Origin: an uncultured Rivularia sp.
Lineage (GTDB): Bacteria > Cyanobacteriota > Cyanobacteriia > Cyanobacteriales > Nostocaceae
Reading direction: 5' to 3'
DNA: 64,000 bases
Assembly: GCA_963665115.1 (NCBI GenBank)
Contig: OY762007.1
Span: forward strand, 128,001-192,000
In this document: positions 20,096-24,260 of the stretch, piece after piece
Position numbering within the stretch: position 1 is the first letter of the stretch
Layout of the letters: each line of letters begins with the position of its first letter
Made by a program: the position numbers and the translations under genes
The notes under the pieces: model-generated
Database searches by the model: none
Told to the model about the DNA's origin: nothing
Seen by the model: only the letters and a program-made list of their open reading frames with translations

Positions 20096-20151
20096 AATTA
20101 CCAATTACCAATTACCAATTACCAATTACCAATTACCAATTACCAATTACC
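20096..20151. repeat. STRR heptamer (AATTACC)x8
   Basis: Eight perfect copies fill almost the whole gap between the argJ stop and the Rpn start. Confidence 0.95.
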
Positions 20152-21464
20152 TATGTCGTATACTCCGCATTAATTTTCACGTAATCGTAACTCAAGTCGC
20201 ATCCCCAAGCTTTACCTTCACCCGCGCCATTTCCAACGCTGACTTTAATAATTACAGGATTATCTACCCTTTGCATATTTACCGTATTCCTATCAACAGT
20301 TAAATCGTTACTATTATTAGTTGCGACAACATCTTTTGGCAAAGAAGATTCTGCTGCTGTTTGTTGCAAATATGCGCTCGCTGCTTTTCTATCAAACTCT
20401 AGGGGTTGTCCTTTTTCCATTAATAAAAAATCTCCCATCTGAATTCTCAAATCGCTTTGCTCGAAGGGTACTCCAGCACGCCCAGCAGCAGCAGCAATTC
20501 TTCCCCAGTTGGCATCTCTACCAAAGATTGCAGATTTAACTAATGAAGAGCCAGCAATGGTTTTGGCAATTTGTACTGCTGATTTTCCATTGACTGCACC
20601 GCTGACTTGCACTTCTATCAAACAAGTTGCACCTTCACCATCGCGAGCGATCGCCTTTGCTAAATGTTGACAAACTGCGGTTAACATTGCTTCCAATTTC
20701 TTGGCTTCGGCAGTCATTTCTGTAATCGCTGGGGTGCGGGATTGTCCGTTAGTTAAAGCAATTAAACTATCATTAGTACTGGTATCGCCATCAACCGTAA
20801 TTGCATTGAAACTCTTATCAGCAGCACGACTGACCATTTCTTGCCACAATTTAGGAGAAACCGCAGCATCGCAAGTCACAAACGCTAACATCGTCGCCAT
20901 ATTCGGATGAATCATTCCCGATCCTTTACTGATTCCGCCAATTCTTACAGGTCGATCGTGTATAGTTGTTTCTAGCGCAATCGATTTTTTCACCAAATCT
21001 GTAGTAATTATCGCCTTTGCTGCTGCGTCACTACCAGTTTCTGAAAGTGCTTCCACTAACTTAGGGATACCTGCTTTAAAAGCATCCATCTTCATTCTTT
21101 GTCCGATTACCCCAGTTGAAGCCAGCAACACCGACTTTGAAGAAATATTAAGTGTTTGCCCCAAGATCATCGCAGTTTCAAGAGCATCCAACCAACCTTG
21201 TTTACCAGTAGAAGCGTTAGCCTGTCCCGCATTGCAGAGAATAGCGCGGGCACTCTGCGACGATAATAACCGCTGACGACAATAGTCAACACAAGCCGCT
21301 GTTACCTGCGACATTGTAAACACACCTGCGGCGATCGCCTCTACATCTGAAACAATCAACGCTAAGTCTGGCGCACCCGAAGGCTTCAGCCCAGCAGCAA
21401 TTCCCCCTGCTTTATATCCTCTAGGTGCTGTAACACCACCATCTATTTCTTGCCAATCACTCAT
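20151..21464 (-). CDS. argJ: Bifunctional glutamate N-acetyltransferase/amino-acid acetyltransferase ArgJ
   Basis: [21 protein letters not shown] (autocleavage Thr), [37 protein letters not shown] at 21464. Confidence 0.97.
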
Positions 21465-21650
21465 TTCTCTTCCCCTGCTTTTGCTTCTCTGCAAGAGGGG
21501 ATTATATCAATTATTAGTTAACGCGGGCAGGATAACTTATTAGTTATTAATAGGAATTGGGGATTGGGCATGGGGCATTGGGGATTGGGGATTGGGAATT
21601 GGTAAAGTTACTTCCTGCCTAGTAAAAGATTACTTATAATAAAACCGCTC

Positions 21651-21717: not shown

Positions 21718-21920
21718 AGTAGGAGTTGTTAGCTCAAAATACTGCTTATGCTCCAAGGATAAAGATTATGCAAGCAGCTTGAAAACCCTATTTTTGAAAT
21801 ATCAAGACTTTACAAAGTAGTTTCAGCAATCAATTCAGATCAAGTGTAAATTCAAAATATCAGTTTCAACACCTATACCCAATCCTGAATGCCCAATGCC
21901 CTAACACCGTATAAATACCC

Positions 21921-21974
21921 AAAAAAAAAGAGAGCTACTTGGCAGCTCTCCGGATCATCAGGGTGCATCTACTT
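21921..21974 (-). ncRNA. Putative small RNA, array copy 1 (~54 nt)
   Basis: Minus strand: TGaTATACT-atgtt-AAGTAGATGCACCCTGATGATCCG-GAGAGCTGC-caa-GTAGCTCTC-T9. Confidence 0.78.
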
Positions 21975-21997
21975 AACATAGTATATCACTATTTGTC

Positions 21998-22015
21998 GAG
22001 GGGGCTTTACCCCTC
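21998..22015. promoter_or_regulatory. GGGG-N5-CCCC palindrome (HetR-box-like) at -35 of sRNA copy 1
   Basis: Minus strand GAGGGG-TAAAG-CCCC-CTC; 15 bp from the -10 hexamer at 21980-21985. Confidence 0.65.
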
Positions 22016-22093
22016 AGTTAATTTTGGTTTAAATTTTGGTAAAGAAATTATCTTTAACTTCACAGTATTTTTATTTAGAATTGGAATAAACAT

Positions 22094-22147
22094 AAAAAAA
22101 AGAGAGCCACTTGGGTAGCTCTCCGGATCATCAGGGTGCATCTACTT
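22094..22147 (-). ncRNA. Putative small RNA, array copy 2
   Basis: TGaTATACT; identical 5' core; hairpin GAGAGCTAC-ccaa-GTGGCTCTC followed by T8. Confidence 0.78.
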
Positions 22148-22171
22148 AACATAGTATATCACTATAGTCCC

Positions 22172-22188
22172 AGGGGGTGAGACCCCCT
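22172..22188. promoter_or_regulatory. HetR-box-like palindrome at -35 of sRNA copy 2
   Basis: AGGGGG-TGAGA-CCCCCT with perfect 6-bp arms; 15 bp from the -10 hexamer at 22153-22158. Confidence 0.68.
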
Positions 22189-22243
22189 TACGTAGATTTG
22201 GATAAAAATTTTGCGAAGAAGTCGCAGTTAAATATGAAAAAAC

Positions 22244-22295
22244 AAAAAAGAGAGCTATTTAAACTAGCTCTCCAAACATCAGGGTGCATCTGATT
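22244..22295 (-). ncRNA. Putative small RNA, array copy 3 (most divergent)
   Basis: TGgTAAAAT; AATCAGATGCACCCTGATGTTTG; hairpin GAGAGCTA-gtttaaa-TAGCTCTC followed by T6. Confidence 0.72.
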
Positions 22296-22320
22296 ATCAC
22301 ATTTTACCATTTATGGCATG

Positions 22321-22335
22321 AGGGATTATACCCCT
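22321..22335. promoter_or_regulatory. Imperfect HetR-box-like palindrome at -35 of sRNA copy 3
   Basis: AGGGA-TTATA-CCCCT (one mismatch); 15 bp from the -10 hexamer at 22301-22306. Confidence 0.55.
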
Positions 22336-22466
22336 TGGTATTTTTTTTTGTAAAAAATTCTTTCAAAGTATTATACGAGTAATAAGAGTAGAGCTAATTT
22401 ATCGATCGATAATATCATTACGGCATATGCATAGCGGGATTATACGGATATTATCTAAATTTTCGC

Positions 22467-22522
22467 AAAAAAAAACGGAGAGCTACTTGGCAGCTCTCCA
22501 GATCATCAGGGTGCATCTACTT
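22467..22522 (-). ncRNA. Putative small RNA, array copy 4
   Basis: TGcTATATT; AAGTAGATGCACCCTGATGATCT; hairpin GGAGAGCTGC-caa-GTAGCTCTCC followed by G-T9. Confidence 0.78.
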
Positions 22523-22546
22523 AACATAATATAGCATCTTAGATAC

Positions 22547-22563
22547 GAGGGGTGACACCCCCT
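22547..22563. promoter_or_regulatory. HetR-box-like palindrome at -35 of sRNA copy 4
   Basis: GAGGGG-TGACA-CCCCCT; 15 bp from the -10 hexamer at 22528-22533. Confidence 0.66.
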
Positions 22564-22774
22564 ACTTATACTTTTTGTAAATTTTCTGTGAAGAAAGTTA
22601 GATAAGTTTGAAGATTGTACTATTTACTTCTTTATACTTAAGTAAAAATCGGGAATTAGCCGTTGCTAGATAAAGTATTCATGATTTTATGGGTAAAAAT
22701 ACTGTTTTATTGAATTTTGGCTAAAAAATTGAATACAGGGAGACGTTGCACTGCAACGTCTCTACATCAATTTT

Positions 22775-24260
22775 CTATTCAACCAAAGCTTTAAGTTTTT
22801 TGTCTACCAGTTGATTGGTTAACTTTGGATCGGCACGTTTTCCAGTTTTCTTGAGAAACCTGTCCGACGAAAAACCCTTTAACGTTGGTTTTGCCGCTGC
22901 GATATTTCTCGACTTCTTTAGGATTACCAGCTATTGCTTCATCGATCAGAGGTTCGAGTACTGCTGGATCTGTAATTAATTTTTCGCCAGCAAAAACATC
23001 TTTGGGAGAATCACCATTAAGTAAATCTGGTAATTTCTCTTTGGCTTTGGCATTACTAATCTCACCTTTATCAATTAGCTTAACCACCTCAGCTAAGTTG
23101 CTTGGGGTTAAATTAATTTCAGAAATATTCAGTTTTTCCTTGTTGAGATGAGCCGCAATATCCCCCATAATCCAGTTTGCGGCAGTTTTGGAATTTGCTC
23201 CTTTTTCTACAGCAGCTTCAAAATACTCGGCTGTTGCCTTCTCCTCGGTTAAAACTCGCGCATCGTATGCAGAAAGTCCCAACTCGGTTTCATAATAATG
23301 GCGTTTTTTCGCAGGTAAGTCTGGTAATTCGCTTTCCCAACTCTTTAATTGTGCGTCAGTTACCTCGATTGGAGCCAAATCGGGTTCGGGAAAATAACGG
23401 TAATCTGAAGAACCTTCCTTAACTCGCATACTAATAGTGCGTTGGGAACCTTCTTCCCAAAGACGAGTTTCTTGAATGATTTTTTCGCCAGATTCATTCG
23501 CTTCAATTTGACGTTCAATTTCGTATTCAATCGCTTTTTGAATCGCGCTGAACGAGTTCATATTCTTAATTTCAACTTTTGTGCCAAATTCCTCTTGTCC
23601 GACGGGACGAACGGAAATATTTACATCGCAACGTAGCGAACCTTCCTGCATATTTCCGTCGCTGACACCGAGATAGCGGACAATTCGGCGTAATTCTTGA
23701 GCATATTCGGCGGCTTCTTGCCCGGAGCGGATATCGGGTTCCGAAACGATTTCGATTAACGGGATACCGGCTCTGTTGTAATCTACCAAAGAATAGCTCG
23801 AACCAGAAAGGCGATCGCTACCGGCGTGAACTAGTTTTCCTGCATCTTCTTCCATGTGCAAGCGAGTAATACCAATCTTTTTACGAGTGGCGTTACCATC
23901 TTTGTCAACTAACTCAATTTCAATATGCCCGTGTTCGGCGATGGGTAAATCGAACTGAGAAATTTGGTAATTTTTGGGTAAATCGGGATAAAAATACTGT
24001 TTGCGGTCAAATTTGCTATATCTAGCGATTTGACAATTGAGAGCTAAACCTGCTTTTACGGCGTATTCTAATACTTTTTCATTGAGTACCGGCAATACTC
24101 CAGGTAAACCCATACAAATTGGATCGATGTTAGTATTGGGTTCAGCACCGAATTCTGTAGAGCTATCAGAGAAAATCTTAGTTTTAGTAGCGAGTTGACA
24201 ATGGGTTTCCAGACCAATTATCGCTTCGTAATCAGTTTTTACAGTTGTAGCAACAGTCAT
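22775..24260 (-). CDS. gatB: Asp-tRNA(Asn)/Glu-tRNA(Gln) amidotransferase subunit B; frameshift at ~22856-22858
   Basis: IGLETHCQL, FDRKQYFYPDLPKNYQISQ, DYRYFPEPDL; removing one base restores GQVLKKTGKRADPKLTNQLVDKKLKALVE*. Confidence 0.96.

Follow-up and report, generated by a model that had tools for sequence, protein, structure and literature searches.

The gap between gatB and argJ contains four tandem cassettes, each of which is predicted to produce a small RNA of about 50 nt with the 5' end of NsiR1, from a promoter overlapped by a likely HetR operator. We propose that HetR represses these NsiR1-like RNAs and that they pair with the start of patU, and we put the probability of this full explanation at about 0.5. 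In this model, an extended -10 promoter would drive each predicted RNA, the likely HetR operator would cover its -35 region, and HetR bound there would shut down synthesis of the RNA. By base-pairing across the ribosome-loading site of patU, and with other mRNAs, the RNA would hold down PatU, the inhibitor (anti-sigma partner) of the differentiation sigma factor HetZ. The likely HetR operator, the breadth of the family past heterocyst formers and the predicted target are new relative to the initial annotation of this DNA.

Four NsiR1-like cassettes between gatB and argJ

The window (the whole stretch of 64,000 nucleotides that was analysed) carries four imperfect repeats on the minus strand between gatB and argJ, with start-to-start spacings of 173, 148 and 227 bp. 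No ORF of 60 amino acids or more was found in the gap between the end of argJ (21494) and the end of gatB (22791). On the minus strand, each unit consists of a 17-bp palindrome, TGn followed by a -10 hexamer (TATACT, TATACT, TAAAAT and TATATT in the four units), the core AGATGCACCCTGATG, a hairpin of 9 to 11 bp and a T run. The initial annotation had described the same array, the same ORF-free gap and the same order of elements, all of which were reproduced; the distance that it gave between palindrome and -10 hexamer, 15 bp, is corrected here to 16 nt, counting from the CCC. The spacers between the cassettes are unrelated, as had also been noted, with local alignment scores of only 10 to 12. 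The features, by window position, are as follows.

22791..24260, minus strand: gatB (Pfam GatB_N and GatB_Yqey; synteny), upstream neighbour; conserved context, with no demonstrated role in the system
22547..22563, minus strand: cassette 4, HetR-type operator (GGG-N5-CCC) over the -35 region; the genome's top-scoring site on the family matrix
22528..22536, minus strand: cassette 4, extended -10 (TGn-TATATT)
22467..22520, minus strand: cassette 4, predicted sRNA with NsiR1-type 5' core, hairpin (22500-22476) and T run
22320..22336, minus strand: cassette 3, imperfect operator (GGG-TATAA-TCC; matrix score 14.3), which includes the -10 of a possible second promoter
22301..22309, minus strand: cassette 3, extended -10 (TGn-TAAAAT)
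22243..22293, minus strand: cassette 3, predicted sRNA, a divergent copy whose first two bases and linker differ
22172..22188, minus strand: cassette 2, HetR-type operator (matrix score 24.4)
22153..22161, minus strand: cassette 2, extended -10 (TGn-TATACT)
22094..22145, minus strand: cassette 2, predicted sRNA with hairpin (22124-22101)
21999..22015, minus strand: cassette 1, HetR-type operator (matrix score 16.7 in the promoter's direction)
21980..21988, minus strand: cassette 1, extended -10 (TGn-TATACT)
21921..21972, minus strand: cassette 1, predicted sRNA with hairpin (21951-21929)
20151..21494, minus strand: argJ (Pfam ArgJ; synteny), downstream neighbour; conserved context

Between positions 21500 and 22800 there are nine terminator-like sites, compared with 0.9 +/- 1.0 in shuffled sequences, and four of the nine are the cassette hairpins. 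The folds of the four units all contain the 3' hairpin of 9 to 11 bp (z of -2.0 to -3.5). The 5' part of the RNA, previously taken to be a single-stranded seed, is indeed open in cassettes 1 and 2 and is weakly paired in the minimum free energy structures of cassettes 3 and 4. RNAalifold returned no consensus structure for the MAFFT alignment of 41 units because the 3' arms are offset in that alignment. A stem-anchored count, which was fitted to the stems, gave stems of 5 to 12 bp in 41 of 41 units and an A-U/G-C/G-U exchange at one stem position that none of 1,000 shuffles reached.

The Rfam NsiR1 model (RF02399), which the initial annotation had suggested running, matched the four units over its full length with 37.2, 33.9, 33.1 and 18.1 bits, below the gathering threshold of 39. 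The NsiR1 5' core is present at 16 of 16 nt in cassettes 1, 2 and 4 and at 14 of 16 nt in cassette 3. In the whole genome of 8.69 Mb, the exact 14-nt core occurs 14 times, 4 times here and 10 times in the canonical NsiR1 array, and the reversed control pattern does not occur. The RF02399 cut-off was passed by 12 other copies in the genome, 11 of them at C1:7.50 Mb and one solitary, all with TCCGGA upstream. This DIF1 motif is present at all 11 canonical copies and absent upstream of all four cassettes. The canonical DIF1-driven array lies beside a gene that we take, from its context, to be hetF, and the cassettes are flanked by gatB and argJ. The genome therefore has two arrays that share a 5' core but differ in promoter type. 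The proposal of a separately regulated NsiR1 sibling that shares the seed, with a different -35 element and away from hetF, thus holds.

The cassettes are predicted to be transcribed, almost certainly so. Since NsiR1 has been mapped to begin at a G that lies two bases ahead of the core (PMC4734099, Table S3), transcription here should start at about 21972, 22145, 22293 and 22520. These starts are more likely than those 2 nt further upstream (21974, 22147, 22295 and 22522) given in the initial annotation, of which the approximate placing stands. Public RNA data comprise two metatranscriptome runs that cover small shares of the stretch, at the contig level only. A further run, X3, covers 96% of the stretch and also has short pieces at the cassettes; it has no record as RNA, so these pieces are uninformative on transcription. 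The portions available to us of tables for Nostoc PCC 7120, a strain that may or may not carry a copy, hold no entry for this RNA, and in two of them neither the 3' side of gatB nor the 5' side of argJ has a unit of its own; no mention of NsiR was found in the main text, as far as accessible, of the Trichodesmium transcriptome paper (PMC4143802).

Several other features were observed in and around the gap. The box of cassette 3 has its CCC broken identically (the TCC variant) across the genus, and the combination of TATAAT inside this box with TTTACA 18 nt upstream (22320-22354; site 22354-22325) is a possible second promoter. A high-copy short palindromic repeat lies immediately downstream of gatB (window 22732-22775), and short heptamer-type tandem repeats in inverted orientation lie upstream of argJ (window 21553-21609 and 21872-21908). 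At window 22856, gatB ends in another frame than in its relatives; the contigs of X4, X1 and X2 are one base short and X3 has the base, and the difference could be either a variant or an assembly error.

The palindrome as a HetR-type operator

HetR requires GGG-N5-CCC within its target, and changes elsewhere had no effect on binding in EMSA; its site at hetP is a 17-bp palindrome (PMC4649674, PMC4192349). The GGG-N5-CCC motif is perfect in cassettes 1, 2 and 4 and has one change in cassette 3. By itself the motif is common, with 552 sites in the genome and no genome-wide enrichment over other spacer lengths. The case for HetR therefore rests on three further tests, namely the flanks, the co-occurrence with hetR and the decay of the box.

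In the flanks, six positions that were not imposed by the search match the hetP site in 79 to 97% of 116 units. The hetP site itself scores 22.8 on the matrix built from this family (116 units; median 25.7, minimum 14.6). When the whole genome was scored with the matrix, the box of cassette 4 ranked first, and a site 1.3 kb upstream of a HetP-family gene ranked fourth.

The family was surveyed by scanning genome contigs for the core and GGG-N5-CCC at a distance of 28 to 34 nt. Seven of 64 parts were scanned and returned 119 loci, from which about 1,200 stretches are estimated overall. The taxonomically named records among the matches are cyanobacteria, and they include the non-heterocystous filament genera Microcoleus, Leptolyngbya, Spirulina, Coleofasciculus and Lyngbya. 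Conservation of the core in relatives, a check proposed in the initial annotation, was evident within the genus, where 27 of 27 genomes match, most with 3 to 5 hits. In a sample of 34 other genomes of this genome's family (f1), the strict pattern was found in 17; relaxed searches recovered the RNA in 16 of the remaining 17, often behind a degenerate box. Some boxes in this family are badly degenerate, with matrix scores down to -8.

HetR was then searched for in 80 of 251 genomes, those left out being the present genome (G000), the 34 of f1, 115 of family f44 and 21 others, the last two groups having no box-core match. Outside f1, box and core occur together in 35 of 35 hetR-bearing and in 0 of 45 hetR-less cyanobacterial genomes; because related genomes are not independent, we give counts and not a statistical test.

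The decay of the box is best seen in family f17, in which the RNA is present in 19 of 28 genomes and hetR in one of 28. Core, hairpin and -10 hexamer are preserved in the 18 carriers that lack hetR, mostly still between gatB and argJ. None of the 18 has a complete box; the median score is -27, and a few show remnants. In G307 (72% complete, 4% contamination), the single genome of the family with hetR, the box is perfect. The RNA likewise persists without the box in six more hetR-less genomes, which brings the total with RNA and -10 but a decayed box to 24. Such decay of an operator after loss of hetR represents a clean natural experiment in regulatory evolution.

Taken as sequence evidence, these observations make the link between HetR and the cassettes a strong one, and HetR very probably binds the palindrome, its likely operator. 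The 26 HetR ChIP regions, in the accessible part of the report (PMC4192349), include no named sRNA gene. Further strong HetR-type boxes are found in the genome at G000:C1:1108441, 4548701, 7218129, 5783543, 6571922 and 3285348, the last of which precedes a HetP-like gene, 16 nt before a TATGAT hexamer.

HetR could either repress or activate the cassettes. The centre of the box lies at about -34/-35, which is the -35 position of the polymerase, and TGn precedes the -10 hexamer in 105 of 145 units. The five central bases of the box, which HetR ignores in EMSA (PMC4649674), fit TTGACA better as written than mirrored (77 versus 23 of 119 loci), and TGACA is found in the box centre 41 times versus 7 for its mirror (119 loci). 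At hetZ, which HetR activates (PMC13342950), the box in this genome begins 492 nt before the start codon; since hetZ transcription starts at -425 and -429 in other strains, its centre would be near -60 by extrapolation. We lean towards repression because the box sits on the -35 position, a directional -35-like hexamer is hidden in it, the -10 is kept where HetR is missing and the hetZ box is near -60.

On the opposite reading, the same HetR, bound in place of a -35 element, would recruit polymerase to the same RNAs. HetR would then induce the hetZ-patU operon together with an RNA that dampens patU, so that sigma-HetZ is released; such a coherent feed-forward loop would make regulatory sense. 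HetR does activate hetZ and hetP in a reconstituted system (PMC13342950), and in 116 of 156 box hits the box stands 31 nt from the core. The sharp mode of the box-to-(-10) spacing (16 nt in 85 of 145 units, 15 nt in 28) also suits an activator, although the spacing still varies from 12 to 19 nt (12-14 or 17-19 nt in 28). The hidden hexamer and the 24 genomes in which -10 and RNA persist without hetR and box likewise speak against activation, which we consider unlikely, if a serious alternative.

patU as a predicted target and the remaining alternatives

For target prediction, the first 23 nt of cassette 1 were ranked with RNAduplex, with no accessibility term, against 7,041 crude ORF start regions. 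The first of the 7,041 was the start of the gene overlapping the hetZ stop codon (-27.3 kcal/mol). HetZ was confirmed by NCBIfam; the gene that follows it had no match in the family searches and is called patU here because of its position (PMC7377430). The ten bases ending 3 nt before the patU ATG pair perfectly with RNA positions 1-10. A second helix at patU pairs linker bases that are absent from NsiR1, and adds 6 to 8 pairs in family f1. NsiR1 ranks the patU start 73rd, and cassette 3 pairs weakly (ddG -7.9). The starts of hetP and hetP-like genes rank poorly as targets: the two HetP-family starts in this genome, which may or may not be orthologous to alr3234, rank 5,147 to 7,037 of 7,041, canonical NsiR1 copies included.

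We then compared the pairing of the 16-nt core with control windows of the same locus in the 43 of 46 hetZ loci that have a recognisable junction. Pairing at the hetZ-patU junction was the best of all windows in 23 of 43 loci, within the top 1% in 29 and within the top 5% in 34, and it failed in 9. The Ala wobble position at the junction is A in 37 of 43 loci, compared with GCA at 138 of 717 Ala codons in HetZ (19%). The site is also kept in two loci (L260 and L262) where it falls beyond the hetZ stop, outside the hetZ reading frame. Matched pairs of RNA and target could be formed in 16 of 17 genomes, the other having no junction, and gave ddG values of -4.6 to -24.1; two pairs used a degenerate second copy. 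PatU3 inhibits sigma-HetZ (PMC13342950), and accumulated PatU3 blocks division and differentiation (PMC9457339), so an RNA that held PatU down while HetR is low would fit the physiology. We conclude that patU is probably a real target.

The junction is also a promoter: it fits the sigma-HetZ consensus TCCGGA-N16-17-TGNA, and in PCC 7120 this region holds a HetZ ChIP peak attributed to patU3. The TCCGGA and ATGAA flanks, and not the spacer, are thus explained without RNA pairing, and a shorter transcript without the sRNA site is implied. In the present genome (G000:C1:5843096-5843135), the patU start codon belongs to the sigma-HetZ -10 element; this promoter should therefore start inside patU and give a shorter, PatU3-like PatU from an internal Met.

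The RNAs could accordingly be HetR-controlled with main targets other than patU, the junction match being a by-product of overlapping promoter, ribosome-binding site and HetZ codons. The seed contains an anti-Shine-Dalgarno-like CCCU, and the duplex ranking took no account of accessibility and relied on crude gene starts. Moreover, hetZ was not found in the 12 f17 and 8 f8 hetR-less genomes tested, patU was not found in 4 of the 5 tested, and the carriers among hetR-less genomes keep the core unchanged, so other targets must exist. A search for a shared start-proximal target in four hetR-less carrier genomes found none, with pattern counts near control. That patU is not a main target is nevertheless improbable, given that the conserved junction bases lie in the promoter spacer, that A dominates the Ala wobble position and that the second helix in f1 uses bases NsiR1 lacks.

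It is very improbable that the palindrome is bound by another regulator travelling with hetR. The gene hetR does occur together with other filament genes, among them hetZ and patU, and binding of HetR here is a prediction, but the match to the crystallised HetR site extends beyond the core triplets, and one genome (G154) has hetR and the box with no match to hetZ or patU.

Eighty loci had flanks that could be assigned: 18 lie near both gatB and argJ, 23 beside gatB alone, 9 beside argJ alone and 30 away from both genes. The synteny that the initial annotation had suggested checking thus applies to 50 of 80, all within 3 kb of either gene, and the PCC 7120 gatB transcript has a 3' tail of 162 nt (PMC10287535); it is hardly credible that the units act in cis on gatB or argJ, as stacked terminators or as a leader, since 30 loci are near neither gene, each copy has its own -10 and box, and the invariant core is that of NsiR1, an experimentally proven trans-acting RNA (PMC9045159).

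Implications and comparison with known systems

If HetR does control the cassettes, they would be a direct HetR output even in species without nitrogen-fixing cells; the role of HetR in filamentous cyanobacteria without heterocysts has been called a mystery, and hetR deletion strains of Leptolyngbya BL0902 exist (PMC11298460). The cassette is present in every hetR-bearing genome searched outside f1, and a single promoter from it could serve as a HetR reporter. Pairing with patU, if true, would add post-transcriptional control to the recently defined HetR-PatS/sigma-HetZ-PatU patterning core (PMC13342950). It would likewise give NsiR1 itself a proposed target, of which no mention was found in the literature searched. 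A wider and tentative reading is that one ancient RNA seed is served by two opposite promoters, with sigma-HetZ making NsiR1 in differentiating cells and HetR shutting off its sister RNA, and both metering PatU. This RNA layer in the HetR/HetZ-PatU core circuit would be older than heterocysts, and among direct HetR targets the cassette would be the best conserved in cyanobacteria that have hetR. The literature searched yielded no description of a HetR-box sRNA family or of patU as an NsiR1-type target; a prior mention is possible.

Copies of the core with other promoters were also observed. DIF1-type (TCCGGA) copies occur in at least 30 of the 35 hetR-bearing genomes outside f1 (including L311-L339), so NsiR1-type RNAs are not restricted to f1. 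Three genomes (G056, G057 and G236) have core copies with variant -35 hexamers, and G154 has the box type only. Two Lyngbya records (L068 and L094) carry additional tandem copies whose core differs by one base and in which a plain TTGAC-type -35 replaces the box as a third promoter type. In the present genome, one isolated DIF1-type NsiR1 copy exceeds the Rfam cut-off, and there is another, weak copy (G000:C1:5759041-5759091 and 4564368-4564417). Two IMG/VR contigs (L298 and L306) carry an apparent DIF1-type unit with a terminator; among the 16 core matches in viral contigs, the box was found in none of the 15 distinct contexts listed.

In published accounts, NsiR1 is a heterocyst-specific array that is driven by DIF1, lies upstream of hetF and represses both hetF and alr3234 (PMC9045159, PMC6596454, PMC3610870, PMC11797042, bioRxiv 2020.09.09.290692). 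BLAST hits of NsiR1 were scored for 38 of 89 genomes, and 27 of the 38 are heterocystous (PMC4734099, Table S3); a discussion of the non-heterocystous hits was not found in the accessible part of that paper. The cassettes share with NsiR1 of Nostoc sp. PCC 7120 (RF02399) an identical 5' core, a similar size, an intrinsic terminator and tandem copies with their own promoters (PMC9045159), and are predicted to work like it. In contrast to the TCCGGA promoter of NsiR1 (DIF1/sigma-HetZ), they have a HetR-type box and an extended -10; their linker and hairpin differ, their locus is gatB/argJ and not hetF, their scores are below the Rfam cut-off, and the family is found in hetR-less genomes too. The cassettes thus form a genuine branch of NsiR1 siblings, widely conserved and with another type of promoter, and they lie outside NsiR1 proper by promoter, locus and score.

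RNA162 of Limnospira indica PCC 8005, a species without heterocysts, is a 57-nt RNA that resembles NsiR1, as the cassettes do (PMC8400943). The accessible part of that report gave no promoter, locus or family description. Like the HetR operators of hetP and hetZ, the cassettes have GGG-N5-CCC with matching flanks, and the hetP site reaches a matrix score typical of the family; their box lies on the -35 of an sRNA promoter, unlike that of hetZ at its extrapolated position. Finally, PatU is also kept low by HetF, through proteolysis of PatU3 (PMC9457339). HetF acts on the protein, whereas the proposed sRNA would interfere with translation of the hetZ-patU mRNA.
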